A DNA stretch of 63,400 nucleotides, the filler included, from Collodictyon triciliatum (lineage: Eukaryota), in the NCBI GenBank assembly GCA_043381765.1. It is 8 parts of 8 records of this genome, joined end to end, with 100 filler letters (N's around TTAATTAATTAA, not from the genome) between each part and the next. Parts side by side here need not be neighbours in the genome. Positions count along the whole stretch, not along the records: positions 42,771 to 49,235 come from JBHJMP010002215.1; 7 more parts are not named here. One strand, written 5' to 3'. The notes beneath the pieces are model-generated. The model was not told the DNA's origin. It searched no databases and saw only the letters and a list, made by a program, of their open reading frames with translations. Of this stretch, positions 12,285 to 61,841 are shown in pieces. The position numbers were made by a program, and so were the translations under genes. Every line of letters starts with the position of its first letter. Position 1 is the stretch's first letter.

Positions 12285-12328
12285 NNNNNNNNNNNNNNNN
12301 NNNNNNNNNNNNNNNNNNNNNNNNNNNN

Positions 12329-12340
12329 TTAATTAATTAA
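12329..12340. other. Artificial six-frame-stop assembly spacer (N44-TTAATTAATTAA-N44). Others at 24683, 37012, 42715, 49280, 55136, 61696.
   Basis: Identical palindromic 12-mer embedded in N runs seven times. Confidence 0.97.
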
Positions 12341-12990
12341 NNNNNNNNNNNNNNNNNNNNNNNNNNNNNNNNNNNNNNNNNNNNTTTTTCTTTTTCTTTT
12401 TCTTTTTCTTTTCTTTTTCTTTTTCTTTTTCTTTTTTCTTTTTTTTTTCATGAATCTTGGGCGGCTGGCGTGGAGCAGATCACGAGCGTGGGCGCGCGAG
12501 AGTGATCTATATCCTGATTTGAGGAAAGCCGATCTTGCTTCGACAAAAGCGGGTGCGCCATAGGGATATAGACGAAAACAACAGCGTGTGAATAAATCCC
12601 ATGTAATGGAAGAAGTGCACCATATTTGCACTATAATATAGTTATTATATTATTAATGTATGTATTTAGTGGCCATAAACAATATTTAGAATGTTTTATT
12701 TACTTAAATTATATTTTCCATATATGTAAACCATATAGAGCCCATTTCTATGAATCTTTCCAAGACAACGGTTTCATAACTGCCGGTGTAATTCCTTTTC
12801 TGGACAGATGTTTCCGTTTGCTTTTCTTGCCCGTGCAAAGATAAACCACAATCAGTCACAAACAACCCAACCACACACACACACATCAAAGAACAACATG
12901 CGACAACTGTTTCTTTTCCTTTAACACCCACAAACACTCACTAGAATAAATACTTTCATTTTTTTTTAAAACACAAGAAAGAGGAACCCG

Positions 12991-15900
12991 ATGGCAGGAG
13001 AGGGCATCTCCACGCAGGAGACACCGGATGCAGCCACAATCGAGCCGATCAGCGAGTCGAAGCGCCGACTGGCCGACCTGCGCATCCTTCTCTGTGTGCT
13101 GGAGAGCGAGACAGCGGCGGAGAGAGAACAAGAGCAAGAACAAGAACAAGAACAAGAACAAGAACAAGAACAAGAACAAGAGCAAGAGCAAGAGCAAGAG
13201 CAACAGAAACAGAGGCGGGGGAGAAGGAGGAGGGAACTGACGCAGACACAGACGTGGCCATGGGAGATGAGGCGACAGCCGCCCCTGCCGCCGTCCCTGC
13301 CGCCGCCCCTGCCCGCCCCCGTGTGGGTGTCTCTGGCGCGGGTGCGGGTGCTGTCGCTGGGCGGGTGCGGGCTGGAGGCGGTGCCGCGCGGGGTGGGGCT
13401 GCTGCAGGAGCTGCGTGTGCTGGGGCTGCAGGACAACCGGCTGCCGGGCGTGGGCTGCGAGGTGTGGACGCTGACGCGCCTGCGCATTCTGCGCCTGGAC
13501 CGCAACCGCCTCAGCGCCCTGCCGGCCGACGCAATGGCCCGCCTCGCAACCCTCCACACCCTGAGCGTCTGCGCAAACGCCCTCACGGCCCTGCCCCCGC
13601 CCCCGCCCTGCCTCGCAACCCTCCTGGCCGCTGACAACCGCCTCGCCGCCCTGCCGCCCCTCGCCGCACACCCCGCCCTGCTGCACGTTGCCGCCCCGGG
13701 CAACCGCCTCCGCATCGCCTTCGCCTCTGCCACATCGGGAACAGCATCCGCATCCGCAGCCACATCGGGAACAGCATCGGCTTCGCCCTCGGTCACGTCC
13801 CTCGCCCTCGCCCGCAACGGCCTTTGCTCCCTGCGCCTGCCCGACCCGCTGCCTCTCGCCCTCCTCGATCTGCGTCTCGATGCGAACCGCCTCGCCTCTC
13901 TGCCCGCCTCTCTCGCCCGCCTCGCCTCCATCCGCACGCTTCTGCTCCATGCAAACAGATTCTCTGCTCTTCCGTCTCCGCTCTCGGCGCTCACTCGTCT
14001 CTGCTGTCTTTCTCTGCACTCTAACCCCGTTTGCGCCCATTCTACATCTACATCTACATCTACATCTACATCTACATCTACATCTACATCTACATCTACA
14101 TCTACATCTACATCTGTATATATATGATTCGTCAAAACATGTATCAATTCATTTGTGTGTGTGTGTGTGTGTGTGCTGCGCCCTTGTCGTGATTCCTCTT
14201 CGGCCGTGTGTAGATGACGCAGCTCCCCCTGTGGCTGACTCGCCTGGTTGCTCTGAGAGACTTGGCCATTGCGTCCATGGGAACTGTCGAGATTCGGTCT
14301 GCCCCGCGGGGGATTTCTCTCCTGCCCTGTTGGGTGGAGCACAATGACCAGATAGACTATATTCGTGCTTTGCAACTCTATCAATCGGTACTGCCCTTAT
14401 GCCAAAAAACAAAAAAACAAAAAAACAAAAAAAAGTGAAAAAAAAGGTCACCTCTGCATCATTTTTTTTTGATTGTATCTACTTCTCTATCATTTTCATC
14501 TTTTCGATGGAAAATACTGAGAATAATGGAAAATGATTTTATATATATGCAGGATTCTGAATCTCTCCCGGTCGCTCACGACGTTGAACAGGATTTAATG
14601 GAACGTCATCAAATTGAATTGAAAAAAATTCAAGAAATGGAATATTTGGAAAATTACCTGTGGGATTCAGAGGGACGCTCGCTTTATTACCCGTCTCATG
14701 ATGGATTGCAAGTATCAACATGTACAAAATTAGCCCTTACAAATCAAAATATATCGGCCTTCCCGTTTGGAATCACCCAGATTACACCCTTGAGGAACCT
14801 TTGTTTGGATAATAACTCGCTATCCATCATACCTGACCACATATCTCGATTACTCAATCTCGAAGAGCTGCACCTTGGCACGAACAAGTTAAGCAGTTTG
14901 CCATCTGGGTTCTCCGGACTCAACAAACTCAAGACATTGTCTCTCGAAAAAAACTTATTTTCCTCTTTACCTCTAGAGATATCAACTATGACACAAATAT
15001 CATTTCTAAACATACACAGCAATCCAGTACGTTTCCCCCCTATTCCAATATATTGTTATGTCCATGTCATCCTTCTTTTTTTCTTCCCCTCACTTTCACT
15101 AGAAGAATTATGCTTATACTCTTTGATTAATTTTTTTTTATTTCGTTTTGCTGTTGAATTTGTTTTGAAAGCAAAAGAAAAACTCACTCAACTTCAAACT
15201 AGATTGGTCACATCCCTTACTGGATGATGCTATTTTCGTTCATGAATATTCTTTGCATCCAAAGCGAAGAAGGTAAAGTCTCTGTTAAAAGAGCGCCCCG
15301 CGGAATTCGTCGTCTTCCATGTTGGACATGTGACGTTTCTCTCTATCCTTCATCCTCTACAATAGCAGTCGCACTGAAACAACTGGAGTTGTACGAATAT
15401 GTAAATCTTAATCAACAATCAACCAAGCAATTTTTAATCGAGTGGCGCATGTGTCTTTGTTTTTTCTTCTCTGTCTGTCCCATTTGTATTTCATTTTTTA
15501 AGGCCCTTTTTTTTTCTTTTCTTTTTTTTTTTTGTAATAGATTCCAGAGGAATATGACATAACTAGAGAAGTATGCTCGTCTCCAACCAACGTACTCACT
15601 ATCGACGAAACAGGAAGCATTCAGGAAATCAGAGAGTTGATGAGAAAAGTGAGAGATTTGGAGGCCTTTAAAATAAAATCAATTCAAGAGTCAGAAAGAG
15701 ACACAAAAAAGGACTCTTCCACTGACGAGGCAGACGTGCTTCGGATAGAGGTGGAGGAGCTCAGAAAGGACTTGGAAGAGGCTCAAGAAAAGTGCCGAAA
15801 GATGGAAGAATCCAAGAAAATGGCGGATGCTGCAAAGGCCAGAGAGTTGGCGACCCTTCGAAATGAATTAGAAGCTACAAAACAACAAACCAAGGAAACA

Positions 15901-17371
15901 CAAAAATTAAAAAATGATTGGGAAAACATCCTATTCAAGTTGAAGCGAAAGGAAGACACAGAAAAGAAATCAAAACTGCAAGAATCATCCCCTGGTAGCC
16001 CAAATAGACCCGTTCAGAAGCAAGCGTCCTTTGCTGTTGACAGCCCACCTGTATCACCAGGTATTTCTTTACATAGATATATCTTTTATATTTTATCTTT
16101 TTTTTTTTTGAGATAAGCTGATTCACTTTAACACCAAAAAAAAATTCTTCTTTTTCTTTTTTTATATGAAACAAAACTATATGAACAGTATGAAGAAAAG
16201 AAGAACGACGAACCTTTATCACTTACCGTTGTCAATCTTTATAAAAAAATAATATCCATATTTCGATTTGGTAATTGCGTTTTTATGAATGGTTGCAGGA
16301 GACTCGTTCAATGACCCGGTCGTTGGCGAATATGAAGATGTGATGATGGTAGATTTCAAGAAATTAGATAAACTTGGGGAGGGCTCGTTTGGTGTTACTT
16401 ACAAAGCACGACTTAGAAATGGAATTGTGGCGGTCAAGTGTTTAAGAAAAGACGTGAATTCAAATGGGAGTGGCTATGAAGAGGTAACAAAGGAGGTGAA
16501 GGCATTTATCAATCTCAGACATCCCAATGTAATCAGTTACTATGCCCTTGGGTGCAAGAGCCAAAAAGTACTATACTTGATGGAATTTGCCGATGGAAAA
16601 AGTATCTGGGAGCTGATAAAAAACTCCTCGAATCTATCATTTGACAAAATCATCAGCTATTCCATTCACATTAACGCCGGACTAGCATTTCTTCATAACA
16701 ATTCTCCGCCCATTGAGCACAGAAACCTAAAGCCCGAAAACATTCTGCTTTGTGGAGGTGTGGCCAAACTGTCCAATTTCGGAGCCCTTGCCGCCCGAGA
16801 GATAGTTATCAGTGACTCGATGCACTCCAACTATCATCATTATGCATCTCCAGAGTATTTCGATAAAGTCTACGGAACTGCGGGAGACATGTACTCTCTC
16901 GGACTGGTTGTTTGGGCTATGCTTGTTGGGAAGCGCCCGTACGAAGGCATGAGTCTCCCACAGATACTGAGCGCGAAAAAGTCCAAACAGAAGCTTGAAA
17001 TCCCTCCTGCAAGTCCGGCAAAGATAGCCAATGTGATTGGCGACTGCCTGGCCCTGGAGAGCTCGCAGCGCCCAACTAGCACACAACTTATTCCACGACT
17101 CAATGGCATTCGGCTAGACCGCGGCCCATCTGTGATGGACGTCTTTGGCAAACCTAAATCCGTCAAGGAGATGAACAACGGCGAGCTCATCCAGTACTTG
17201 GAGAGCAAACACATCTTTAAAAAGTTTGTCCAGATTGTCAAGGAGAATGGAACCACTGGCGACGATTTTCTTCAGCTGGACGAGACAACGCTTTACGCCG
17301 AGCCATACAAGCTGATTAAACTGCAGGCCCGCATCATCCAGGAATTGATAAAGGACGCAAGACTCACTTAA
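12991..17371 (+). CDS. LRR-LRR-coiled-coil-(pseudo)kinase-SAM protein (TKL-like fold)
   Basis: Exons 12991-14028, 14214-14387, ~14552-15026, 15203-15400, 15541-16060, 16299-17371 with compatible phases. Contains LxxLxLxxNxL repeats; kinase motifs GEGSFG, VAVK, HRNLKPEN, NFG, SPE, DMYSLG; and a C-terminal SAM-like segment (ELIQYL...KENGTTGDDFLQLDETTL). Confidence 0.8.
14041..14115 (+). repeat. (TCTACA)n intronic microsatellite
   Basis: Directly visible, downstream of the inferred donor at 14029. Confidence 0.9.
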
Positions 17372-17655
17372 AACGAAGTGCAAAAGCTACATTCTGGCCG
17401 GGAATATCGCACTCCCTCACCTGCCTTACTTTCTCCTTCCTTTCTTTATCTTTAAGCTTTATTTACCTAGCCGGCAAAGGATATGATTACCCTTGTGCTC
17501 CATCCCCTATTCACTGTTCCAGTTTCCACCCAGACCTGCGTCTGGGCAAAAAAAAAAAAAAAAAAAAAACTAACATCACACACGCACAAAAGGAAAAAGG
17601 CAGCCAGAAAACAAAAAACACGCCGTACTGAGTGCGATATCCAGCAAAGAAAAGA

Positions 17656-18666
17656 ATGCCGCTGTTCGGCTCGAAACCCGACCCACGAGTGAGCGAACTC
17701 GAGCAACAAGCGGAGCAGCTTCGCAAGCGGGCGGACGACGCACAGAAGGAATCACAAACACAGCGGCGACAACTGGAACAGCAAGTGGAGCAGCTGCAGG
17801 CCACTCTGCGCGAGCGAGACAAGACCATCCGGGAGCAAAGCGAGCAGCTGCGGCACGCCGAAGAGGCACAGGCCGCCCTGGAAAAGAAGCTGGGCGAGTC
17901 GACCGTGTCCTTCGAGGCGCAACTGCAGAGCAAGCAAAGCGCTCTGGACTTGCTTCACACGCAAGTGAGCGAAACACACGAGACGCTGCAGGCCAGAGAC
18001 AACGCGCTGCGGGAATCAAGCAAAGGGCGGGACAATGCCGAGATGCAACTTGTGCGGTTGGAAACCGAGGCCAAGAGTCTGACAACGCAGCTGCGCGAAT
18101 GGCAAGAGCGGACCGAAGAGCGCGAGAAAACCCTGCGGGAGGCGCAGGCAGCATCAGCAGCGTTTGAGCAGACCATAGTGCAGATGAAGCAGGCACACGC
18201 TGAGGCCATTGATGGATTGCAGAAGCAGATACAGCTGGCTCGGGATGAGCGTGAGCGCGCTCTGCAAGAAGCCGAGGCCTTTCGCGCAAAGTTTCAGCAG
18301 ACAGAGCAGCAGCGCCTCAGCGACCATGACCATGCCATGCGCAAGTCATTTGAGGGGCTGCGACTCCGTGCAGAGGTTGAGCAGCTGCATCGTGAACTGG
18401 CCGAGCTGCTTGGGCGGCCGCCTTTGCCAAAGTCGCCTCTTCACAGGAGCGGTCTGGACTCTGCTGCGGCTGTGAATGATGCTGCTGGGGTGGACGGAAG
18501 GCAATCGGCAGAAGGTGCTGCTTTGCCGCGTGTTCGGTCGGATGAATCGGTCCATATCCAGGCAACGCTGCAGCATGATGAAAAGGCCGACAAGCACGGG
18601 ATGCAGCGGTTCAAGATTCCAGTCCCGACTGGAACAGTGCATCTCAGCATCTTTGGCGGGTCGTGA
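17656..18666 (+). CDS. Single-exon coiled-coil protein of unknown function (MPLFGSKPDPR...)
   Basis: Long GC-rich ORF with E/Q/L/A/R heptad composition over ~250 aa. Confidence 0.8.
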   Translation: MPLFGSKPDPRVSELEQQAEQLRKRADDAQKESQTQRRQLEQQVEQLQATLRERDKTIREQSEQLRHAEEAQAALEKKLGESTVSFEAQLQSKQSALDLLHTQVSETHETLQARDNALRESSKGRDNAEMQLVRLETEAKSLTTQLREWQERTEEREKTLREAQAASAAFEQTIVQMKQAHAEAIDGLQKQIQLARDERERALQEAEAFRAKFQQTEQQRLSDHDHAMRKSFEGLRLRAEVEQLHRELAELLGRPPLPKSPLHRSGLDSAAAVNDAAGVDGRQSAEGAALPRVRSDESVHIQATLQHDEKADKHGMQRFKIPVPTGTVHLSIFGGS

Positions 18667-23718: not shown

Positions 23719-25283
23719 TTTTTCGGGTTCTTTTGTTTAGGTTGAACTTCTCTTTCTGTTGTAGATAACTGCATTTATAAACAACCGAAAAAAATGTAAA
23801 AAGAGCATACATTCGAGTGGGTAAAGGGAAAGGGGCGTGTGAAAGAGACAACTCTACATTTTGATGCTTCAAGGATCGCTCAGAATCAGACAAACGAGAA
23901 GTAATTAAGGTATTATGGAGAATAATTCATCCGGCCATCAATAGCTTCTTGTCAATTCCAGTCTTCTTGGAGGTGCAAGGAATAGATACTGACAGAACCC
24001 GACACTTTTGTTTCTTTTTTCTTTTTCTTCGTTCCTGTTCTGTGGGTTTTGAGTTTGATTGCGCATCGCATCGTTGAAGGGTGAGCCTGCGATCAAAATC
24101 AGGGGCGAGTGACGAAGAAATCGCATCCACATTTGTTTATTATAATCGGAATTTATAGATATAATCTTACAATTCACTGCAAAAGTTGAATATAACACTT
24201 ATGAACCACAATTATTACAATAAATATATAAGATGTATACATTATGAATTATACGTACAACGAAAGGGCTCCACGAGGCAGACACCCTTATATTGGAATC
24301 TCTCCACCAAATTGAGGCGCGTATTCCGCCAGTCCAGGTTATTTTGTCTGTTTTTTTGAGATAAAAAGCATATCTTGTTCAAAAATGCCCACAAACCTAT
24401 GTGACTTGTAAACTCCGACAAACAAAGCTGTGTTTTTTCACATCTATTTTTTTGAACTTAACGTCCTTGGGTGAAACCATATCTCAGTTGATCGCAGTTC
24501 CATAGCACACACAGCCACACAGCCAAAAACAAAAAACAAAAAACAAAAAACATAAAACATAAAACATAAAACATAAAACATAAAACATAAAACATAAAAC
24601 ATAAAACATAAAACATAAAACATAAAACATAAAACATANNNNNNNNNNNNNNNNNNNNNNNNNNNNNNNNNNNNNNNNNNNNTTAATTAATTAANNNNNN
24701 NNNNNNNNNNNNNNNNNNNNNNNNNNNNNNNNNNNNNNCAGCAAACTGATACACGCTCAATCGACCATACAGCTGACCAAACCTTTAATCGCCAAGAAAC
24801 CCAAAGAATGACTTTCATTTGCTTTCTTTCTCGGCTGCATAAAAATAAAACACATTACGAGTGGAAGCAAATAGATATCATGTGAGATTGGACTTGCATC
24901 TCGCTCTTTCCCTCTTCTGAGTAAATGTGGGGTTGGTGTTGAGTCTGGAATAAAAGCGAGGATTTTGAGTGTGTAAGTGTACGAATTGTGTCGTATCAGC
25001 AAACAAAGATGTGGAGCATCGCGGCTTGTTTTGAATCAGATTGAAACCACCCGACATTCTGAGTGCTGCAGAGGAACAAAGATAAAATAAAATAAAAACA
25101 AAAAAAATAAATATAAATAAATTAAAAAACTCAAAAGTGTCGCGTTTATTGTGTCAGTTGTTTTCTTTTCATTTCTCTTTGTGTTCTTTCAGGCATCAGT
25201 CACCACCACCCAGCTGCATTCCCTAAGAGTTGCAATAGCAGCTATTCTGAATGAGGAACGGCGCACCTATCAGAAAAGCGCCT

Positions 25284-32110: not shown

Positions 32111-32707
32111 TCAGTTTTCAAGATGGAAGATGTCGCCCTGCTGGGTCTGTTCGGACGTGCTCATGTCGTCATTGTCATTGTCATTGTCATTGTCATTGTC
32201 ATTGTCATTGTCATTGTCATTGTCATTGTGTTCGTCATCGCCCGGCCGGGACTCGGCGGCAGCCTTTGCACGAGGCGGATGTTCACGGGCCTTTGCATGC
32301 GACTGCGATTCATCGAGGCGGACCTGTGCGGCCGGGGGCGAAGCGGCATCGCCGTCTGCGGCAGACTCCTCCGCGACAATCCGCTCGTCTGGGTCGTCTG
32401 CGTCTTCTGCGTCGTCATCGTGTGCGGCAGACTCGCGCCGGTGGCCGGAAATCAGGCGGACCACGTCTGCGGCCGGGGCGCCGTTGGGCGTGTTGTGCGG
32501 CGCACTCAGCGGCGACCGTGCGTACGGCGAATTGCGCAGCTGCAGCAGCTCTGCCCGCGAATACACGTGGCGGGTGCCGCCCGGGGTGACTGCGTACAGC
32601 GTGCCGCCCAGCGAGGCCGAGACGTTTGCCGGCAGCGGCTCCTGCGTCTGCGGATCGCGGCCCTGCAGCCGGGTCGAGATGGCTGCGCTCGGCGTTGCTT
32701 GGCTCAT
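32111..32707 (-). CDS. EIF4EBP: eIF4E-binding protein (4E-BP family)
   Basis: SLGGTLYAVTPGGTRHVYSRAELLQLRNSPYARSP parallels 4E-BP [35 protein letters not shown], including the YxxxxLphi motif. The C-terminal FHLEN* resembles the TOS motif FEMDI. Confidence 0.88.
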   Translation of the reverse strand: MSQATPSAAISTRLQGRDPQTQEPLPANVSASLGGTLYAVTPGGTRHVYSRAELLQLRNSPYARSPLSAPHNTPNGAPAADVVRLISGHRRESAAHDDDAEDADDPDERIVAEESAADGDAASPPAAQVRLDESQSHAKAREHPPRAKAAAESRPGDDEHNDNDNDNDNDNDNDNDNDNDDMSTSEQTQQGDIFHLEN

Positions 32708-33264
32708 CGGCTCTGCGTGTCGCTTCTGGGTGAGTGGCTGGCGTGGCTCTTGCTTTGCGTGGCTTTGCAGGCGCTTTTCCTTTTCGCTTTTCGTTTTCTT
32801 TTTTCTTATTTGTCTGATCAATGGGTTGTATTCCCTTTTTGATTCTTCGTCTTGCTTCAGGAGAGAGAGCTTCCTTCTTTTCTTTCTTTTCTTTCCTTTC
32901 TTTCTCTTTCTTTTTTCTGTGATGCTGCCTGCTTGGAGCGCGATCCGGTGTGATCAGCAGGATTTCAAAGGCGGCGTGAGATTAATCAGATCTGGATTGT
33001 TGATCGGATGCGTGCGAAAGGAAACACCGTTTCAAAACGCGTTTTTTCGCTGGAATTACTCGATGTGGAATGGCTGCTTCTGCTGTGTATGTTTTAATGT
33101 GCTTTGTGTGCGCGAAGAGGGAAGAAGCGGCTGGCGAGGGAAAAAAAGGCAAGGAAACGAAAGGAATGGCCGTAAGGGAATGACAGCTTCCAAGAGACAG
33201 CGGATGCGAGAGGGAAAAAAAACAGAGAGGGGGGAGAGAGGGAGGAAGGGAGAGGGAGGTTGGA

Positions 33265-36967: not shown

Positions 36968-37099
36968 NNNNNNNNNNNNNNNNNNNNNNNNNNNNNNNNN
37001 NNNNNNNNNNNTTAATTAATTAANNNNNNNNNNNNNNNNNNNNNNNNNNNNNNNNNNNNNNNNNNNNTTTTTTCTTTGTTTTTTTTTCTTTGTTTTTTT

Positions 37100-39280: not shown

Positions 39281-41414
39281 ATGTCACAGAAGGGTGAGAA
39301 GATTGATGTCCTTGATACTAACTCAGCTGCGATCACCCCACCAAAGTCTCTTGCCTTGGACGACGCAAAGCTGACAAGCTATCTCCGTGAAACAAATATC
39401 ATCGCTGTTGGAGACTCGCTGCTCGTGAAAAAGTTTGGGTTTGGGTAAGTGGTAGGCAGATATTATCCCGGCGCTGTTTTGCCTTCAAACTGATAATATA
39501 TGTTCTCACAAACAGGCAGAGCAACCCGACATATCTCCTGGAGGTTAGGTATTACCTTTGCTCACGTATAATCAAGTCACCCGACCAAACTTTCTCTCAT
39601 TTTGATTTGAATCGTTTTAAAATAAAAGTGTGATAATTAAAGAGGGAGGGAGAGAGGAAAAAAGACAAAGAAATGTATGACCCTAACTCTGTTTGATTAT
39701 TAAACCATCATGACCTACATAAGCAACGGGGGAAAGCTTGTGCTTCGAAAGAAGCCACCAGGAAAACTTGTCGCCACTGCTCATGATGTTGAACGAGAGT
39801 TTCGATTGTTGAGCGGACTTTATGGAACCAAAGTTCCAGTTCCACGCCCGCTTCTCTTTTGCAAAGACGCTCAAATCCTCGGGACAGACTTTTATGTGAT
39901 GCAACACATGAGCGGACGAGTATTCACAGACCCCACCTTACCGCAGATTCCTGTTTCTCAGCGAATGGGGATTTATTACTCGTTGATACACACACTGGCC
40001 CATATCCACCAAGTGGACATTAAATCCAACCAGCAACTGGCTTCTTTGGGTCGAAACGGCGGTTTCTTTTCTCGTCAGATCGAACGAATGGTCAAAACAT
40101 CCAAAGCCAGCGAAGGCCCAAAAGTCGAGCCTCTTCCTCATTTAGAAGCCATCGCAAATTGGCTGCGCCTGAATATGCCCCCGGACGAAGTAACTTTGAT
40201 GCACGGTGATTATAAATTGGACAATGTCGTAAGTTTATTATCAGTATTGGTATTTTCTCTGAATTCATCATTTTTATAATAAAAATAGAAATGATGATAA
40301 TAATCACATTGTTCCCTCTTTTTTTCTTTTCTTTTTTTGCTCCGTTCTTGTTTTATGTTTTACTAAATGTATCGCATACCAGGGTAATATGAATATATAT
40401 TTAGTTGAATTATTTTTATTTAGATATTCCATCCGTCTGAAACTCAAGCGATTGCTGTCGTTGATTGGGAGCTATCCACCATCGGGTAAGTATGAAAGGG
40501 AATAATTATATACATAAAAAAAGGATGATTACGAGAATATGGTAGTCGCTGTATTAAAAAAAAATTATAAGGAAGGGAGGAGGAATACGTAGTTATCAAG
40601 AATGCGTTTTTTTCATTAGCCACCCGCTTGCTGACCTTGCCAATATGTGCGGAGCCTATTCTCTTCCCTATGATGAAAACAGTGTTTTCAAGGGGCTGTC
40701 TGTAAGTGAATGAATACGAGGGCTTTGGTTGTCAAACTATTATTGATCAAGATGGTGTGCTCAGAAAAATAGAAAGAAACTATGCAGGTCTCATTTTAAC
40801 CCCAGCTATTGAATTCTGATATAGGGATATAACTGTAGAGAAAATGGAATTCCAGATGAGAGTGAATGCCTGAAAGAGTACTGCCGAGTAACAGGGAGGC
40901 CTTACCCGATTTTTTCGTGGCCCTTTTGCAAAGTTTTCCATGCATTCAAGGTTTCTTTACATATGATATCATTTTGGATATGTGGAAGAAGAAAAAAAAG
41001 AAGCGAAGATATGGAATGATATGAAATGTTTTACGTAACGTGAGCACCAAATTCTTTCTTTTGCACTTTGCTAGAAAGTAATAATAAAAAAATATTGTGT
41101 AAATTGATGTAATATTAAGTAGGAAAGCAAAGCGTTTACACCTTTTGATAATGATTTTGTAATGCCACTTTCTTTTTTGTTGGATTTCAGCGAAGTTAAT
41201 CAAGCATGTATTGCATTTCGATGCATATTTCTTATCCTAAATACAATAGAATTCCGTGATTCTTCAGGGGATATCAGCTCGATTGGCAGCGGGAAATGCA
41301 TCGTCTGCGCAGGCTTCAACGTACGCGATGGCAGCCCCACTTTTAGCTCAATGGGCATGGGACCGGATTTTGTCTGTGACAGAGAGGGAATCGAGTCTCA
41401 AGAGCAAGCTATGA
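39281..41414 (+). CDS. Stand-alone aminoglycoside-phosphotransferase-fold kinase (ACAD10/ACAD11 N-terminal-like) with PTS1
   Basis: FGFGQSNPTYLL; VLRKKPPGKLVATAHDVEREFR; VPVPRP; GTDFYVM; HGDYKLDNV|IFHP...AVVDWELSTIG|HPLADLA; ILQGISARLAAGNASSA; ends ...SLKSKL TGA (41412-41414). Confidence 0.9.
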
Positions 41415-42670: not shown

Positions 42671-43284
42671 NNNNNNNNNNNNNNNNNNNNNNNNNNNNNN
42701 NNNNNNNNNNNNNNTTAATTAATTAANNNNNNNNNNNNNNNNNNNNNNNNNNNNNNNNNNNNNNNNNNNNAAAANNNNNNNNNNNNNNNNNNNNNNNNNN
42801 NNNNNNNNNNNNNNNNNNNNNNNNNNNNNNNNNNNNNNNNNNNNNNNNNNNNNNNNNNNNNNNNNNNNNNNNNNNNNNNNAAAGATGAAAAGATAAAAAA
42901 GATGAAAAGATAAAAAAGATGAAAAGATAAAAAAGATGAAAAGATAAAAAAGATGAAAAGATTAAAAAGATGAAAAGATAAAAAAAGATAAAAAAAGATA
43001 AAAAAGACAAAAAAGATGAAAAGATAAAAAAGATGAAAAAGATAAAAAAGATAAAAAAAAAGATAAAGAAGACAAAAAAAGATAAAAAAGATATAAAAAG
43101 ACAAAAAAATTGAAAAAGAAAAAAGAAAAATAGAAAACCAATTGCTGAGCCGGAAAGAGGGAAAGAACGACCACGACTCTAACCGCAGGATTGTAAACCC
43201 CAAAGCAGGGAGAAAAAAAAAAAGGAAGGAAGGAAAGAAAGAAAGAAAGGAAAAAACACACGGGAGAAGGGCGGCGAGAAGAGA

Positions 43285-44784
43285 ATGAAAGGGCTGGGCA
43301 AGGGCCGGACGGCATACGGGGAGGAGGCCGTGGAGCAGAAGCAGAGGAGGCTGGAGAGCAGCAGCCGGTTCGGGAGCTTTGTGGCGTGGGCGAACGGGGT
43401 GCTGGAGCGGAACGAGATCAAGTACCGGGTGGTGTCGCTGGTGGTGATGGCGGGGGTTGCGATTGCGCTTGCGATCTACAAGTACAACCTGTCTGTGGAG
43501 GACGAGCGGGAGGCTGCGCGGCTGTACTTTGGGTCGACGGTGCAGTCTGTGAGCAGCTCGCTGGACAACGAGCTCTCTGCGGCGGGGCTGTACCACCGGA
43601 TGCTGCTGAACCACGTGCTTGCGAACCAGCGGGTGCCGACGTTTGGGGAGTACGCGCGGTTCACGGACGCGGAGGTCTTCTGGAACATCACGCAGGTGCT
43701 GCGGGGCGAGGGCCTGGGGCTGCGGGTGACGCCGGAGACGCGGGGGGCGTTCGAGGCGCTGGGGCGGTCGGTGTACGGGGCCGGCTTCCGCGTGAGCGAG
43801 CGCAACGGCACGGGGGCGCTGGGGCCGGCGGCCAACCGGACGGAGCACATGTCGATCCTCTTCATCCAGCCGCTGGCCACCAACCGCGCAGCCGCCGGCT
43901 TCGACATCCTGAGCGAGCCGCGCAGGGCCGCCGCCATCCGCACGTCCCTGCGCACGGGCGCCATGGTCCCGTCCGACCGCGTCCAGCTGGTCCAGAGCAC
44001 GCGCCCCGAGTTCTCGAGCATCGTCATGGTCCCCTTCTACCGCCTGCCCGGCCGCATCCCGCCCCCGCCCCTGGATCCCGACCTGGGCGCCGACACGGGC
44101 GCCGACACGCTGGCCGCATATGCTGCCGCCCTGCGCGCCCGCGGCCTGCCCCTGACGCTGCCCCGCTACCTGGCCGCCCTCAACTCGGGCAACTACACGG
44201 CCCGCCCCCGGCCCGGCGCAGAGGTCCTGGGCGTGGTCAGCGCCGCGTGCGTCTACCAGGTCATCCTCGACAACGCCGTGCGCGGCATCGACCTCTTCAT
44301 GGTCGACGTGGTCCTCTACATGGCCGACGCACCCCCCGGCGCGCGCTACCTGGCCCACTGCTCCGGCCCCAGCGACTCGCCCGCCCACGCGCCCTACACC
44401 ATGGACCAGCTGCAGGCCTCCGCCCCGGGCGACCTCGCCGGCGACATTGTCGTCTCCCACGCCCTGCTCTTCGGCATCCGCCCCTACCGCCTCGACATCA
44501 TCGCCCGCACAGGCTACTTCACCGCAAAGACCACCGACGTCCCCGTCACCCTCTTTGTCGTCTCCCTCCTCGGCTCCGTCTTTGGCCAGGTCACCACCAT
44601 CGTTGCCGTCTGGTACATCTTCTACCAGCGCACCTTCCTGCGCTCCACCCCGGTGGTCCGCGTCCACGTCCGCCCCTGCGACGCAGACCCCCCGCCCCCC
44701 TCCGACAATCCAAGCAACCGGCCCCACGACTCCGCCGCCGGCGCAGCTGCTCCGGGGATGCCCATTGTCCGCGAGCTTGTCTGA
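43285..44784 (+). CDS. Two-TM CHASE-domain sensor protein without an output domain
   Basis: TM1 VVSLVVMAGVAIALAIY; CHASE-like core ILFIQPLATNRAAAGFDILSEPRRAAAIRTSLRTGAMVPSDRVQLVQ; TM2 VTLFVVSLLGSVFGQVTTIVAVWYIFY; ~50-aa Pro-rich tail. Confidence 0.8.
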   Translation: MKGLGKGRTAYGEEAVEQKQRRLESSSRFGSFVAWANGVLERNEIKYRVVSLVVMAGVAIALAIYKYNLSVEDEREAARLYFGSTVQSVSSSLDNELSAAGLYHRMLLNHVLANQRVPTFGEYARFTDAEVFWNITQVLRGEGLGLRVTPETRGAFEALGRSVYGAGFRVSERNGTGALGPAANRTEHMSILFIQPLATNRAAAGFDILSEPRRAAAIRTSLRTGAMVPSDRVQLVQSTRPEFSSIVMVPFYRLPGRIPPPPLDPDLGADTGADTLAAYAAALRARGLPLTLPRYLAALNSGNYTARPRPGAEVLGVVSAACVYQVILDNAVRGIDLFMVDVVLYMADAPPGARYLAHCSGPSDSPAHAPYTMDQLQASAPGDLAGDIVVSHALLFGIRPYRLDIIARTGYFTAKTTDVPVTLFVVSLLGSVFGQVTTIVAVWYIFYQRTFLRSTPVVRVHVRPCDADPPPPSDNPSNRPHDSAAGAAAPGMPIVRELV

Positions 44785-45380
44785 CCGACCCCCTCTGCCA
44801 TTCGCCTATCTACCCGCTTGCATCTATACACCCGGCAGATTCCTTTTTTTTCCTTTTTTTTCCTTTTTTTCTTTTTTTTTCCTTTTTTTTTCCTTTTTTT
44901 TCCTTTTTTTCTTTTCTTCTTGCTTGCTGAAATGCATGCTCATCGCCATGTAACCCATACCACGCTATGTCCTTTTGTTATTGTTATTTTTCTTTCTCTT
45001 CTTCTTGCCTCTCCTTTATAACTCCCCACTCTGCATCTCCTCCACCCACATACACCCCATCCCACAGATCTTGAACAGAATGAGATAGGACTTTGTTTCG
45101 GTCACCCACCCTGCGCACATCTCATAAACCACAATTGCTGGAGCCTTTGGACTTGCTTTTATCTCCTCACAACTTCTAGCGATCTACCTTGATCCACCGC
45201 CACGTCTTTTTTATCTTCATTCTCCTTTTTGCGGATATTGCCGCGATTATTATTACACGTGCGTGTGTATTTACGCAAGAGCGCATACAAGCAAAGCAAG
45301 GAACACGAGATCCAAGCCGCCACCTGACCTCACCCCGCCCCACCGATCACCGTTCACAGTACACACACACACCCAAGCGG

Positions 45381-46977
45381 ATGGCCGAGGAGGAGCTGCT
45401 GAGCCCGCGCGGGTCGGGGCTGACGTATGGGCCTGGAGAGGGCGAGAAGCACCGACGCGAGTCGTTCTTTGGATTTGCACGACGCGGGACGATCGGGAGC
45501 AGCAACAGCAGCAGCAGCAGCAGCAGCAGCGGGCCGGGGCGACGAGCAACGGTGGCGCAGGGAGGAGGGGGCGGAGGAGGGAGCGGGAGTGGGTCGCTGT
45601 CGCAGCCGCTGATCCCCGTGGACCCCGAGTTCTACGTGGAGATGAATCTGCTGGCGGTGCAGCTGCAGGGCGTGGTCGGGGCGGCCGGGGAGCGGGCGCT
45701 GAGCGCAGGGGACGTGCTGGGGCGTGCGCTGGAGTGGCTGCGGCAGCTGCGGCCCCACTTCACGGACGCGCAGAGCCGGGCGGTTGCGCACACGGTGCTG
45801 CAGAACGCGGTGTTGCGGATGCCCCCCGAAATCCCGCGCCGCCGCATCGACGCGTACCTCGCGCTCTACGCCGTCTACGCACGCGCCCACGCGCCCCTCG
45901 CAGAGCTGCGCGCAGCCACGCCGGACTCGGCCTTCGAGACGCCCGCCGCCGCCGCCCTCGTCTTCCGCGAAATCGCCGCGCTGCTCCCCGCCCCGGACGC
46001 CCCCGACGCCATCCCCGCCATCCCCGCCAAGGAGCAGCTCCCCTTCCTCGCCTTCCTGCTCAGGCACCGCTACACGCCGCATGACGCCCTGGCCGAGCAG
46101 ACCCGCCTCCAACGCAAGGTCCAGGCACACCTCGCCACGCAGCCCCCGCTCTCCCCACACCTGCTCCTCCATCGCCAGGGCTATCTCTTCAAGCGGGGCC
46201 ACGTCGTCAAGAACTGGAAGCGCCGCTGGTTCGTCGTCAATGCTGAGGCGGTCCTCTACTACGAGACCCAGACAGCCTCAGACCCCAAGGGCTCCTTCCC
46301 TGCCGCAGATATCCTCGAGATTGTCCTGCCACGAGACGATGAGGTGCGCCCGACATTCCCTCTCTTTAATATACCCATAGCAGTATCTCTCTTCCTTCTC
46401 TTCTTTTTCTCCTTTTTCTTCTTCTTTTTTCTTCTTTTTCCTCTTTTTCCTCTTTTTCCTCTTTTCCCTCTTTTCCCTCTTTTCCCTCTTTTCCCTCTTT
46501 TTCTTCTTTTTCTTCTTTTATCTTTATATCATTTTGTCCATCTTCGTTTCAATGGGTTCACAATTCCCTTCGTACACGTATTTATTTTGGCTCGGTCGCG
46601 GGTAACTTCTCCTTACCCACCACAATCCGCGCCATGGTGAATGTGTGAACGTGCTTTCTCTTTTGTTTTTACAGTATCCTGTGATATTCATATTGTTTTA
46701 TTCCATTCTTGATGTGTCGGATGCTCTCATCTGGACTTCCTTCATCTATCGATTCTTTAGCTTTTATTCCTCTTCAAGAACATCCATACCTATCTTATCT
46801 TATTCTACTTGCCTTCATATCGCTCTCTAGTTTGGAAAGCCTTTCTGTATTCAGTTGGTCTTGTCAAACAAGACATTCTACGTCCTCCAGTGCCAGAGCT
46901 ATGCAGAACTTAAAAGCTGGATTGACACACTTTATCAAATATTGGCAAACATCCAATCATCCGGTGCAACCAATTAA
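45381..46977 (+). CDS. PH-domain protein
   Basis: Exon 1 to ~46343 (QGYLFKRGHVVKNWKRRWFVV...LYYE...PKGSF). Exon 2 from 46831 (FGKPFCIQLV...FYVLQCQSYAELKSWIDTL...TAA). Confidence 0.88.
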
Positions 46978-47308
46978 CTCAAACAAAATCGGTATATTCA
47001 CTCATATCTACCACACACCAAACACACACAAAAAGAAAGAAGAAAAAAGAAAAAGGTTCCAGTTGCTGTAACACCCTGCATCTTCTCTATATAAACCTTC
47101 TTTTTTTTTTCAGCACCAATTCGTACTCGTTTTTCGGACAAGAAAGGGCAAAAGAAAAATAAAAGAAAATCAGCAAAAAGATAGAAAAATAATAGTAAAA
47201 TAAAATAATGACATGGATAAGTAAAGAAAGAACATCTCATCATATGAGGCTTGAGGTGTCTGGTATCTTTCTGCGCGCATACCCAATTATCAGTGTGATT
47301 GCAGTGTA

Positions 47309-49020
47309 CTATTCCGATGGCAGAAACTGCTTGTTAAATATAGTTGCCATCGCGCGGAAAATCATGTCCCTAGCATTACCCCAAATCCTTCGCACAGAGA
47401 GAGGGAACCAAATCGTGGTGTAATGATTCGAGTCCCCATCCGCACAATGTCCACAGGCCCTGTCTACAAAAGCATCGAAACTAAGGTAAGGCTCGTCCTC
47501 CCCAAACCGCACTAATAAAACCCAAGAAGAGAAATAAAAACTAAAAAAGAAAAAGAAAGCCGCAAACTTGGGGCAATTACATCAAACCCACCGCTCCCGT
47601 GGCTCTGATCGAACCCGAAAAAGTTTGTCTTTCAATTCTCCCACGAAACTAAACCTTTGCCCGCTATCGCATCTCCAACAAAGCTGGCTGCAGCACTGAA
47701 CCCTCACCGCCTTTTGATCGAGGACGAGTCNNNNNNNNNNNNNNNNNNNNNNNNNNNNNNNNNNNNNNNNNNNNNNNNNNNNNNNNNNNNNNNNNNNNNN
47801 NNNNNNNNNNNNNNNNNNNNNNNNNNNNNNNNNNNNNNNNNNNNNNNNNNNNNNNNNNNNNNNNNNNNNNNNNNNNNNNNNNNNNNNNNNNNNNNNNNNN
47901 NNNNNNNNNNNNNNNNNNNNNNNNNNNNNNNNNNNNNNNNNNNNNNNNNNNNNNNNNNNNNNNNNNNNNNNNNNNNNNNNNNNNNNNNNNNNNNNNNNNN
48001 NNNNNNNNNNNNNNNNNNNNNNNNNNNNNNNNNNNNNNNNNNNNNNNNNNNNNNNNNNNNNNNNNNNNNNNNNNNNNNNNNNNNNNNNNNNNNNNNNNNN
48101 NNNNNNNNNNNNNNNNNNNNNNNNNNNNNNNNNNNNNNNNNNNNNNNNNNNNNNNNNNNNNNNNNNNNNNNNNNNNNNNNGCTTTTCCTCGCCATGGTGT
48201 CCATATCCTACTTCTGACTCACTAGAACCGGATTTCACGTCATCGCTTGGTTCATGAAATCCTTGACCATGAACTGAAGAATTCGATCCATGCACTCAAC
48301 CTGACGCTTCGCTCAAAGCAAGAAGAGGCTGTTTAAGCATGTTGAAGATAAAAGTCTATTGTTCCAGATTTTCAGAGTCCCATGAAAAAAAACTTTTCGT
48401 GCATACTGATATAAAGAGATGCAGATTGTCCTTTCTATTGTATTTGATTCTGACTGTATTGAAAGCTGGATAATACAAACAAGAAATCATATATGTATCC
48501 ATCTTCGGCGATGGTAGTTGGTCATTTGGAAATCGGATAAAGAAAAGAAAACAAGATATTTTTATTTGTTCCTGTGATAGTCGGTGTCACAAAGATGTGA
48601 ACGACGGGTGTTGTGCTTCTTGAGAGGCTTGCAAAGGGAGATTAGAGAATCCTCTGACTGGAACATGCAAACGTGGTGAAGGCCCAGGAACGCTTCGATG
48701 GTCTTTGGACATTACTTCCCACCGTCTCGAGGTTTGGCATTGGCAGAAAAAGAATGCGCCGTCTGTGCAATTCCATATGCTAGAAGCAGCGCACCCAGAG
48801 CACAGCCCCACGCATAGCCTGTAAGCTTAGCGTTTGCCTTGTAGTATCGGTTCACTGCGGTGGATGTCTGCTCTACAGTTTTTAATGATGATTCGTGCTT
48901 GGGCTCCATTTTCCTTTTCTCTGTCTACTTTTGATTCGAGCTCCTGTAATAAGCTTCCCTTGTCCTCGCGTGCGCTCGCTCTCGCTCTTCCTCTGTTTCC
49001 GGCCTGTTTCTCAAGCAAGA
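47309..49020 (-). CDS. Possible multi-exon hypothetical gene interrupted by an N gap
   Basis: Several open, acceptor-preceded segments (e.g. ORF 47309..47512). No domain recognised. Confidence 0.3.
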
Positions 49021-49488
49021 GTTATTTGGTGTTTGTGAGTCTTGAAAAAAACAAAAAAAAAACCTCCTAAAAACATAGAAATACAATAAAATAACGATGA
49101 CGAGGCAACTTGAACCTTCGGGGTTATCCGAAAAAATTGGAACGAACAATGGCGCAATAAACACAAAAAAACACAAAAAAACACAAAAAAACACAAAAAA
49201 ACACAAAAAAACACAAAAAAACACAAAAAAACAAANNNNNNNNNNNNNNNNNNNNNNNNNNNNNNNNNNNNNNNNNNNNTTAATTAATTAANNNNNNNNN
49301 NNNNNNNNNNNNNNNNNNNNNNNNNNNNNNNNNNNTTTGGTTTTTTTGGTTTTTTTTGGGATTTTTGGTTTTTATTACCTGAGTCCAAAAAAAAAAGTCG
49401 ATTGCGTTAAGAATTGTAATTTTGTTGGTGTAGCGGACTTTACAGAGGACAAATCAAGGTTAAAACATAATTAAATATACATAATACC

Positions 49489-55037: not shown

Positions 55038-58000
55038 CAAAGAAAAAAAAAAATTTTTTTATTTTTTTTGGTTTTTTTTTCTTTTTTTTTTNNNNNNNNN
55101 NNNNNNNNNNNNNNNNNNNNNNNNNNNNNNNNNNNTTAATTAATTAANNNNNNNNNNNNNNNNNNNNNNNNNNNNNNNNNNNNNNNNNNNNTAAAATAAA
55201 TAATTGAACATAAACAAAAAAACAAAATAACTATCAAAAAAAAAAAAAAATAAATCTTTTTTTTTTTTTTTTTTTAGGTTGAGTTCACAGACAACAAGAA
55301 AATCATTGAACTCATAGAGGTCATTTATCCGTTTATTTGCACCGGGCGTGCTATTGTTGCCTCTCAAAAATATTTTGATTAATCAGAGACGGTTTTGCTA
55401 ACAGCATTCTTCACCTACTCTATTTTCACTTGGATACTAAACCAATTTCCTCGTCTCATTCAACAGTCACCCAAAACTGGTATTTTTGCAGAGCTGGACA
55501 ACTCCATTATCCGCAAGCAATTGTCAAATGAGAAGGCCGATGCTGATTTTATGAACAAGGTTGATAAAATTTTCCTTGCAATCGCAATAATGATGTCAAT
55601 ATCATTATTTTTTTTCCTGGTCAGTATCATTAAACTCTTTTCGAGAAATTGAATCTCGATTAAATATAGTTAGGGAAGGTATACCAGAATTCGGATATCT
55701 TCAAGAGAATAAACGGAGAGCCCACCCAATTTTCCATACAGCATTTTGCTGGGAAAGTATGTTTTTGGATCAGCGAAGAATATATAATCTTGAGCTTCGA
55801 TTAGGGAATTGTCATTGATGTAATGAACGGTAATTCAGGTTACCTATGACAGTCGTGGATTTTCTGACAAAAATGCTGATACAGTTCAAAAAACCCTGCG
55901 CGAATGCATTCAGGTGATTTCCGATATTTTCCCCTATTACACATGTCAGTTTTCTTTGTGGAATGAAAAAAATTTTTCTTCCTTTATTCGATTCAAATTG
56001 TGGAATGGAAAATTAATTTTCTAATATCATCTCTATTCGGGGTGGAACATTCTCGTAAATATTGTGTTCATAATTCTATTTGGTGATTGTATCTAATATA
56101 TGTTCATCAACTGCAGTCAACCACAATGGACTTCCTCAAGAAAATCATTCCTCCCTCGTATGGTTTTCTTTGATTAATTTTAAGCATACCGTGGATTGTG
56201 TAATGTTTTGATAAAAACTATTATTATATGACAGGTGGTCCTCTGGTACGAATCTGACCTTCAAGGCAAAATACATCGAGAGAAAAATCTCTTAGATTTG
56301 TTTTATTTATGATCATGTCTCTAAGAATACATTTCTTCCCAAAAAAACAAATCGATAGAACAATCTAGAGTTTCTCAGTTGAGTGGAATCACCTTGTGTG
56401 CGTCATTCAAGGTTAACAGCATTTTCGTATTGATAATTCAAAAAAAATTATTATGTAAGATGCCTGATATTTAGAAGTTTTATTTTATATTACCAAACCT
56501 GCTCCCTTAAAATTCTTTTTTTTTTTTCACTATAGGAGCAACTTCTCACTTTAAAAGAAGATATAATGAAATGTCAAACCCACTTCGTGCGCTGTATCAA
56601 GCCGAATACTAAGAAATCATCGAACGGTACGAGCTTCCATTCAACAAAGTCACCTTTGCTGTGGCTGCCCTATATAATTAGGCTTCATGACAAGAAGTCT
56701 AAATATGTTAATGTTTTTTTTTTGTTTTCTTTTGTTTGGTGGTATCGATATCAAAGTTCAAGCTCCTAATATGTCATTAGATTTTCATGGTATGGAAGTA
56801 CTGAGGCAGCTGTTGTACAGTGGAGTCATCGAAGCAATAAAAATTATGCGTCAATTCTATTCTGTTCGTCTGTCTCACTTATACAATATTTTAAAGTAAG
56901 TTATGCATTTGCTTCCCCATATTAATCCATTTATCGAATGTCACATACTTATTTTCCTACACATAGATTTTTGGGCGAGCAATCCTACGATTGGAGATAC
57001 TGCCTCACAAAATATCTGAACTACAGGCTTCCCTTTTCCACGTATTTTTTATTTACTTTTTTTTCTCTACAGAATTTGTGCATGAATGTTGTGATCGCTC
57101 CATTCGAATTTTCCTATCAATTTTTGTTTTATCATTTTTCTTTGATATTAAAATTCATAATTCAGAGGGAGAACCGCTGCTGATATCCCAGAATCATCGT
57201 ACCGCCAAGTCATTGGGTTTGTAGGGTCCAAAGTCTCGAATGTTATTTTATTTATTTTTTTCGTTCTTACGCTATTGCCCTAATTTCTCTTTCATGGGTA
57301 TTGCTTTAAATAAATAATTCAAAATGTCTGTCAGTGATATCATGGCGGCACTGGGATTGAAGCACAAAGATGATTACCAAGTGGGGAAGACCAAATTGTT
57401 TCTCCGCGATGCTGCAGTTTGTATCATCTCATCTAAACTCACATATATTCTGGAGCAAATTTGTTTTTCAAGGTTTAAAATCCACGGAATAAATATGACC
57501 ATAGAAAATGAAAAGGAAATGGGGCTATTTTTCCTCAATCTTTTTTTTTTTTAAAAAAAAAACTGCCCATTTCTTTTTTCCATGTAACTACAGGCTCGAA
57601 GAATCCCAAATATTTTGAGAAGCTACCAAGGTCTGCATGGCGGGAAAATATCTGGACATCTGAGCTTATCCATGGGTCATCGGAAACAACTGTCAACACT
57701 TTCCCTCCAACGTGGTAAGGATATGGCAGTTGTTAAGGCAGCATGTCTTAATCATCGCATTACACAATACTGAAGGGTGATTCTGTGGTAGATTTTTAAG
57801 TTGAAATGCAATCTCTGTTCCTTCCATTTCAAATAAAAATAGGTGCTATCATGGCCACTTATAAAAGGAAAATGATGGCGCACCTGTCTCCAGATGAACT
57901 ACCTGCTGAGTAATATGACTTTAGTTTTAAAGGAATTATGCGGAAATTTTTTTATTTTAATAATATCAGTAATCGTGCAGTCGATAAGTAATTGCAAAAC

Positions 58001-61634: not shown

Positions 61635-61841
61635 TACCAAAAAAATTAGGANNNNNNNNNNNNNNNNNNNNNNNNNNNNNNNNNNNNNNNNNNNNTTAAT
61701 TAATTAANNNNNNNNNNNNNNNNNNNNNNNNNNNNNNNNNNNNNNNNNNNNTATTCTATTTTATTCTATTTTATTCTATTTTATTCTATTTTATTCTATT
61801 TTATTCTATTTTATTCTATTTTATTCTATTTTATTCTTTTA

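Follow-up and report, generated by a model that had tools for sequence, protein, structure and literature searches.

A mirror-symmetric switch from G-ending to C-ending codons within GC-rich 5' exons of Collodictyon triciliatum

Why should a single open reading frame (ORF) end its synonymous codons in G over one part of its length and in C over the remainder? The question is raised by an ORF encoding a CHASE-domain protein in Collodictyon triciliatum (assembly GCA_043381765.1), which lies in a 63.4 kb stretch of DNA, the window, that consists of eight short contigs strung together. The initial annotation of this DNA inferred from such a flip either a localised bidirectional strand-asymmetric process (a replication origin, a break or recombination hotspot with GC-biased repair, or an R-loop boundary) or selection for long-range G:C fold-back of the transcript. 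The flip is real, strong and recurrent, a mirror-symmetric bias at the level of DNA that is found in GC-rich 5' exons; the interpretation first placed upon it is, taken as a whole, partly supported. The ORF and its parts are as follows.

43285 to 44784, + strand: CHASE-domain ORF of 499 amino acids, identified by Pfam match, homologue alignment and codon-position composition
43285 to 43875, + strand: CHASE G arm, four-fold G/C sites 87% G, with 20 runs of GGG or longer and 0 of CCC or longer
43852 to 43875, no strand: CHASE switch point, with the sigmoid midpoint at 43852 and the best step at 43875
43876 to 44781, + strand: CHASE C arm, four-fold G/C sites 77% C, with 37 runs of CCC or longer and 8 of GGG or longer

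The ORF is a member of the CHASE family, its residues 138-254 matching PF03924 with 73.2 bits (cut-off 25) and E=3.2e-20. Position-3 GC is 0.93-0.94 in both arms, and 301 four-fold sites bear G or C. The best change point lies after codon 197 (nt 43875), the fraction of G at these sites being 0.87 ahead of it and 0.23 beyond it. Its log-likelihood ratio (logLR) is 61.3, whereas 2000 permutations averaged 2.6 and never exceeded 10.3. A sigmoid fitted to the change has its midpoint at nt 43852 and takes ~267 nt to go from 10 to 90%, and a step model (61.3) is preferred to a linear gradient (50.7). The skew is maximal a few hundred nt off-centre, the G fraction being 0.96 in codons 51-100 and 0.00 in codons 401-450.

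Every four-fold family takes part in the flip, although unevenly, with GCN, GTN, GGN and CGN flipping nearly completely: GCG/GCC goes from 16/3 before the switch to 3/29 after it, GGG/GGC from 14/6 to 1/19, GTG/GTC from 16/1 to 4/25 and CGG/CGC from 14/2 to 2/22. CTG, ACG, CCG and TCG still stand at 23-63% in the C arm, where there are 17 CTG to 10 CTC, 7 ACG to 10 ACC and 8 CCG to 23 CCC. The original description of codons ending in G until ~43850 is therefore borne out by the 87% G of the first arm, whilst the description of the second arm as almost always ending in C is overstated; the flip there is real (G 0.23) but CTG, ACG and CCG persist. Canonical G-quadruplex motif starts number just 2 and 1 in the two arms, and G-quadruplexes were rejected as the driver on account of this scarcity.

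A protein search with the ORF scored 8000 candidates, of which 2 passed E<=0.001; the closest database protein (P0002, from the Diphylleia rotans transcriptome) has 46% identity and also carries PF03924. Two metagenome scans for the DNA of relatives, one with the CHASE protein and the other with a 3-row alignment, found no relative. A search of sequencing runs listed 7, of which the best two contain 0.49 and 0.30 of the words sampled from this DNA, with no RNA run among those listed.

The same asymmetry extends beyond the coding sequence into DNA on either side of it.

42881 to 43120, + strand: outer left flank, an A-rich microsatellite of (GATGAAAAGATAAAAAA) type, purine fraction 0.80-0.88
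43121 to 43284, + strand: A/G-rich leader 5' of the CHASE ATG, including (GGAA/GAAA)n at 43202-43256
44785 to 45230, + strand: C/T-rich right flank with (CCTTTTTT)n at 44840-44920, purine fraction 0.20-0.35

In windows of 200 nt the purine fraction is 0.88, 0.80 and 0.80 across 42801-43400 and 0.20 at 44801-45000, which agrees with the A/G-rich upstream and T/C-rich downstream flanks of the initial annotation, and only 4 such windows in the whole 63.4 kb reach a purine fraction of at least 0.80, 3 of them at the CHASE left flank. GC skew in windows of this size is +0.27 to +0.51 across the CHASE 5' arm, and the window at 43201 combines a purine fraction of 0.80 with a skew of +0.51. The claim that the island is compositionally self-complementary about one point also stands, as its ~1.5 kb are mirror-symmetric in composition, with nt ~43850-43875 as the axis: whichever strand is followed from 5' to 3', there come in turn an A-rich repeat, an A/G-rich stretch, a G arm, the switch, a C arm, a C/T-rich stretch and a T-rich repeat. 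The A/G microsatellite at 43202-43256 is 70-79% complementary to the (CCTTTTTT)n tract at 44840-44926, past the stop codon, and poly-purine and poly-pyrimidine tracts of this kind might pair in the transcript or form triplex DNA.

Is this a peculiarity of one gene? The bulk of the DNA is AT-rich, at 38% GC, with spacers of poly-A/T and microsatellites, and within the window there is a handful of islands at 60-75% GC. A change-point test with 1000 shuffles each was applied to 8 ORFs that have coding support, in the form of Pfam hits or clear periodicity, and in 3 of the 8 none of the shuffles reached the observed flip: these are the CHASE ORF and the following two exons.

45384 to 46349, + strand: GC-rich exon 1 of a PH-domain gene (Pfam, change-point test)
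12991 to 14127, + strand: GC-rich LRR exon (Pfam LRR, change-point test)

The three flipping ORFs are exactly those islands of at least 70% GC that have clear + strand ORFs (each is 70-75% GC against the 38% background), and the polarity is G-to-C in all of them. In PH exon 1 the flip falls at codon 145 (nt 45818), where the G fraction goes from 0.84 to 0.23 with a logLR of 34.0, a step (34.0) again being favoured over a gradient (21.7), and the G arm of this gene begins sharply at its ATG. In the LRR exon it falls at codon 162 (nt 13476), from 0.82 to 0.29 within 13231-13950 or from 0.77 to 0.31 over the whole ORF (step 22.1, gradient 14.1), between a 5' purine (GAACAA/GAGCAA)n repeat and a 3' (TCTACA)n repeat that leans towards pyrimidine. 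The flip is located at or near the GC maximum in each island, each has a purine-rich left side (A, then G) and a pyrimidine-rich right side (C, then T), and the skew of the islands fades within ~1 kb. The pattern is symmetric under reverse complementation and gene orientation is therefore unreadable from it, which makes it an informative fact that no C-to-G flip occurs inside any island. No motif shared by the three switch points was seen by eye, and four-fold A/T counts, tried as a signature of deamination, were set aside as inconsistent between genes.

The pattern is found on two different contigs, the joints between contigs being marked by linkers.

12285 to 12384, 24639 to 24738, 36968 to 37067, 42671 to 42770, 49236 to 49335, 55092 to 55191 and 61652 to 61751: linkers of the form N44-TTAATTAATTAA-N44

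Contigs on either side of a linker are not physically adjacent, and the remaining runs of N, of 40-631 nt, are gaps within contigs. The contig that carries both CHASE and PH spans 42771-49235 and is free of N over 42881-47730, position 42881 being the first base past a gap.

An ORF for an eIF4E-binding-protein homologue (eIF4E-BP; 32111-32821, - strand), in a 70% GC island, has a weak lean in the same direction, from 0.64 to 0.34 (p=0.11; purine/pyrimidine p=0.025). This homologue matches PF05456 at 2.9e-14 and has on each side of it sequence that is T-rich on the top strand; the phase of highest GC moves by one base near 32500, suggesting an intron or frameshift. A coiled-coil ORF of 60% GC (17632-18663, + strand) has no flip (p=0.37), is G3- and purine-rich throughout, and shows no switch ahead of a gap at 18862; it may represent half of an island truncated by that gap, or else a case of another kind. 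Further features, of ordinary composition or flanking the PH exon, are as follows.

14469 to 15227, + strand: AT-rich LRR exon (LRR_8, 1.1e-12), third positions balanced
16289 to 17371, + strand: protein-kinase exon (Pkinase, 2.1e-41), third positions balanced
39710 to 40279, + strand: APH phosphotransferase ORF (PF01636, 8.3e-28), a control of ordinary 45% GC
46350 to 46660, + strand: T/C-rich microsatellite tract 3' of PH exon 1, a putative intron, purine fraction 0.14 at 46401-46600
46831 to 46977, + strand: PH exon 2, 40% GC, third positions balanced, with a PH profile match

The kinase exon has neither a G/C nor a purine/pyrimidine gradient (p=0.30 for both) and the APH ORF has none either (G/C p=0.85, purine/pyrimidine p=0.25), and a general purine-to-pyrimidine gradient in ordinary AT-rich exons was rejected on the strength of these two. 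In the AT-rich LRR exon, which offers only 34 sites, the G/C test is nominally significant in the same direction (p=0.005), with a purine/pyrimidine p=0.21.

It is apparent that the skew is a matter of regional DNA composition and not of gene-wide codon usage. Position-3 GC is 0.34-0.53 in the AT-rich LRR, kinase, APH and PH exon-2 ORFs, and since later exons are balanced the islands are 5' exons of ~1-1.5 kb. In the PH gene the domain profile is split between the two exons, with profile positions 2-53 in exon 1 and 65-103 in 46831-46977, the second half-domain taken alone scoring just below the 25.1-bit cut-off (22.9 bits, E=1.2e-4). On the other contig the GC-rich LRR, AT-rich LRR and kinase exons of 12991-17371 (+ strand) look, from their adjacency, like one LRR-kinase gene with long AT-rich introns. 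As in islands produced by GC-biased gene conversion (gBGC), silent-site GC is raised locally relative to neighbouring exons, and the bias is also present at non-synonymous and non-coding sites.

Neither is the skew about translation or protein function. On passing from the first CHASE arm to the second, C at codon position 2 increases from 0.21 to 0.35, Glu falls from 8.6 to 1.3% and Gly from 10.2 to 6.6%, and Asp rises from 1.5 to 6.6% and Pro from 2.0 to 10.6%, with parallel amino-acid shifts in the PH and LRR genes. Compared with the Diphylleia homologue the left arm has gained 8 Gly and 1 Pro and the right arm 4 Gly and 11 Pro (Fisher p=0.009), and as that homologue has little contrast between arms the bias looks lineage-specific. 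The initial annotation is upheld in excluding protein sequence and transfer RNA preference in favour of a localised, bidirectional process acting on DNA, given that the skew is present in flanks and amino acids, is confined to islands of ~1-1.5 kb and recurs in 3 genes. The strand bias also seems to determine which coding repeats arise in each arm. Low-complexity runs are found in the G arm of PH exon 1 at 45490-45590, where poly-Ser derives from (AGC)n and poly-Gly from GGA/GGG/GGC, and in the LRR exon the purine end encodes (EQ)n and the pyrimidine end (ST)n.

Neighbouring bases carry a further trace of the mirror. In the C arm of CHASE, residual G seldom follows a G at -1 (4/77) or -2 (15/147), and in the G arm residual C is less frequent when the base at +1 is C (7/83 vs 29/156, p=0.04) and stands at 4/54 vs 32/185 before C at +2 (p=0.085), with no dependence on C at -1 or -2. 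The context rules are thus mirrored, where a rule based on codons would look upstream in both arms, although the signal in the left arm is only suggestive.

The best reading of these observations is a DNA-level, mirror-symmetric substitution bias that is centred in the island and acts outward in both directions from a fixed point within 5' exons: the GC peak, the mirrored strands, the sharp centre, the off-centre skew maxima and the half-width of 0.5-0.9 kb all suggest a process of this kind. By analogy with known hotspots, the likeliest cause, plausible though not quite probable, would be an evolutionarily stable recombination-initiation (double-strand-break) site, with GC-biased conversion and an asymmetry between resected strands. 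A break or recombination hotspot with GC-biased repair is the best fit among the causes put forward at the outset, and its polarity matches what the available text of PMC7615360 describes; the mechanism is one that we infer.

Such a mechanism would begin with recurrent breaks at the centre of the island, after which 5'-to-3' resection would expose the top strand as single-stranded to the left and the bottom strand to the right. GC-biased repair of heteroduplex over ~0.5-0.9 kb per side would then drive silent sites to ~93% GC and push amino acids as well, and strand-specific damage or repair of the retained strand would remove C from it and add G to it. Candidates for this last step may be C>N and A>G changes, or a mismatch correction specific to G.T, which would, on inference only, favour G on the invading strand and so have the same polarity. 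The outcome would be a top strand rich in G to the left of the centre and in C to the right of it.

At human break hotspots, in the accessible portion of PMC7615360, the forward strand is single-stranded to the left of the break, where it undergoes C>N and A>N changes; the right side shows the mirror image, and the asymmetry peaks 700-800 bp off-centre. As far as it is given there, this spectrum predicts G over C on the left and C over G on the right, as is observed, and the islands have the mirrored complementary composition, with an excess of G on the forward strand to the left, that the polarity described in that text leads one to expect. The available part of PMC13712754 models a gBGC peak associated with the transcription start site (TSS) within first exons, and that of PMC5698624 reports poly-purine/poly-pyrimidine and poly-A tracts at hotspots, along with stable hotspots in taxa without PRDM9.

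Several points weigh against a break site as the cause. The tie to breaks is one of analogy alone, and three matching polarities are not by themselves statistically strong; there are only 3 clear cases in 63 kb, with two further GC-rich islands (coiled-coil and eIF4E-BP) that lack a clear flip. The human spectrum, in which A is also lost from the single strand, does not predict outer flanks that are A-rich on the left and T-rich on the right; these would need a pre-existing purine/pyrimidine polarity or a separate cause. In organisms without PRDM9, breaks usually fall in nucleosome-free promoters, not in the middle of exons, and if the breaks lay in the flanking A/T tracts, a polarity of the human kind should yield a skew opposite to that observed. 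A boundary linked to the transcript or to coding would account at least equally well for the abrupt onset of the PH G arm at its ATG.

It is possible, but rather doubtful, that each G-to-C step is the fossil trace of a meiotic break site that has stayed fixed within a first exon of this deep-branching eukaryote. If so, a single genome sequence would mark points of recombination initiation to within tens to a few hundred bases, GC-biased conversion would be intrinsically strand-asymmetric, with the retained 3' strand turning G-rich, and it would be runaway biased conversion, rather than function, that rewrites the codons and amino acids of these proteins. Should the pattern prove to be genome-wide, the positions of hotspots could be read from sequence alone, and models of GC-rich 5' exons centred on breaks could be tested directly against those centred on transcription. 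Whatever the cause, the silent-site share of G swings from ~85% to ~25% within tens to a few hundred bases and drags amino-acid composition with it, which is a caution for annotation and for studies of codon usage, as one ORF may hold two opposite codon dialects for reasons that are possibly non-adaptive.

An unlikely, though better surviving, alternative to a break site is convergent transcription, with sense transcripts starting from the A-rich upstream flank and antisense transcripts from the downstream flank, which is A-rich on the bottom strand. The exposed non-template strand, held open for example by R-loops stabilised by purine-rich RNA, would lose C or be repaired asymmetrically, each strand would become purine- and G-rich over its own 5' ~0.5-0.9 kb, and the switch would be where the two zones meet. 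The two halves are indeed alike when each is read on its own strand (A-rich repeat, A/G-rich stretch, G-rich arm), G accompanies A in the islands, all three islands are 5' exons, and the start of the PH G arm at the ATG keeps a model of this type, with or without R-loops, alive. Purine loading favours RNA:DNA hybrids. The available text of PMC4911931 and PMC9254486 links R-loops to poly-A tracts and to AT/GC skew. What convergent transcription leaves unexplained is a silent-site GC of 93% confined to the island; it requires an antisense promoter inside PH intron 1, and two decaying gradients would not obviously give a step-like junction. Transcription-linked skews elsewhere amount to a few percent, against the fall from 0.87 to 0.23 seen here.

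Selection at the level of RNA could be imagined in two opposite forms. The first, proposed at the outset, is that the arms were selected for long-range G:C fold-back of the transcript. The whole CHASE ORF has a minimum free energy of -713.8 kcal/mol; the 15 synonymous shuffles in which the switch is abolished gave -740.1+-9.8, and the 15 in which it is preserved gave -724.7+-10.1. The native transcript is thus less stable than the former and like the latter, with no specific pairing, and fold-back selection was rejected. The second, which is distinctly improbable, is selection to keep a very GC-rich mRNA, or transient single-stranded DNA, unstructured by separating G and C into different halves. 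Local folding over 120 nt is weaker than that of switch-destroying synonymous shuffles in 40/40 for each of the 3 genes (means of -41.9 vs -47.8, -40.1 vs -45.0 and -38.4 vs -43.8 kcal/mol), as such selection would have it. A skew of either sign would suffice for this, however, with no need of a flip, and native folding equals that of switch-keeping shuffles (z=0.8, -0.2, 1.2), so nothing beyond bulk composition is seen; moreover, the skew reaches non-coding flanks and alters amino acids, and the GC-richness of the exons would itself remain unexplained.

That the switch marks a fixed replication origin or terminus is very unlikely. A step-like change in the sign of GC skew is the classic signature of either, and the A/T-rich tracts could act as origins. 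By the usual polarity rule, however, an origin runs from C-rich to G-rich over the length of a replicon, whereas here the change is G-to-C and is lost within ~1 kb; the usual leading-strand excess of G would make the centre of the island a terminus, with origins only ~2 kb apart (43875 and 45818), and G is coupled to A and not to T. The magnitude of the skew in the islands is also far above known eukaryotic replication skews. The origin suggested by the initial annotation is accordingly a poor fit.

Least credible of all, and largely refuted, is an artefact in which the two halves were misjoined, for instance as an inverted chimera from amplification or assembly, for although the window is made of short gapped contigs, both CHASE arms share a single open frame and the same third-position periodicity, BLASTP to P0002 is colinear over residues 42-449 (191/412 identical, E=9e-101) and crosses codon 197, as does the CHASE domain itself (residues 138-254), LRR matches cross the LRR switch, the left arms of CHASE and PH have no reverse-complement similarity to the right, and an identical pattern occurs on two different contigs. 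Misjoined halves, which the initial annotation had named as fatal to its claim, are therefore not the explanation, as the colinear homologue spans the switch.

The same comparison of arms bears on whether the islands are the remains of an ancient inverted duplication. Aligned with the reverse complement of the other arm, a CHASE arm scores 27 where shuffles score 31.0+-4.0 and 87/100 reach it, and a PH arm scores 27 where shuffles score 28.8+-3.3 and 73/100 reach it; inverted duplication or residual palindromy was rejected for both genes on this lack of similarity between arms. In the LRR gene (13231-13950) the corresponding score of 40 exceeds the maximum of 35 in 100 within-arm synonymous shuffles, a match that is probably due to repeat units, possibly palindromic strings of LRR codons of the CTGCAG type. 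The 25 longest of 52 inverted-repeat pairs are all confined to the low-complexity A/G and T/C flanks.

How do these islands compare with systems already known? Abrupt changes in the sign of strand composition occur at the origins and termini of bacterial chromosomes and in human skew domains, on a scale of 10^4-10^6 bp; in contrast, the switch described here operates at ~1 kb, with the polarity of a terminus and with G coupled to A. Ginno et al. are said to have described GC-skewed CpG-island promoters that form R-loops. The likeness to such promoters, as far as the available text of PMC2817419 shows, is that the non-template strand is G-rich for ~0.5-1 kb past the gene start and that a change of sign is tied to a GC-rich island, but in CpG islands, within the same text, that change is C-to-G at the promoter (divergent), where here it is G-to-C in mid-exon (convergent). 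In a promoter region of the R-loop-forming type, the C arm would call for antisense transcription. The CpG observed/expected ratio of the five islands is 0.88-1.24, with ~1.0 in CHASE (1.02) and PH (1.01), against 0.89 for the bulk (GpC 1.14); these are not islands of methylation escape, an explanation that is not supported because CpG is not markedly depleted in the bulk.

Dog and bird promoter hotspots are a further comparison for gBGC at the 5' ends of genes. In the accessible text on human ancestral TSS (PMC13712754) and on GC3 gradients in grasses (PMC4316631, PMC5460877), the first exon is GC-rich and later exons are not, and non-synonymous and non-coding sites are affected as they are here. 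The contrast in Collodictyon is far sharper, with position-3 GC of 93-94% against 34-53% within a few hundred bp, and the available text of these papers does not describe a mid-exon G-to-C flip. Nor did a limited search of open-access text turn up any account of GC islands in which G3 gives way to C3 in mid-exon.

Human meiotic break hotspots are alike in that, in the part of PMC7615360 available, complementary types of mutation flank a centre over a span of 1-2 kb with the polarity seen here, the retained single strand loses C and A, and the peak lies several hundred bp off-centre. They are unlike in that the signal described in that text is one of mutation rate at short-lived PRDM9 hotspots and not a saturated compositional island, whereas here silent sites are nearly fixed (0.87 vs 0.23), the islands are 5' exons and their outer flanks are A-rich and T-rich. 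A strand asymmetry that at human break sites is normally a faint statistic over thousands of hotspots is, in these islands, saturated in single genes.

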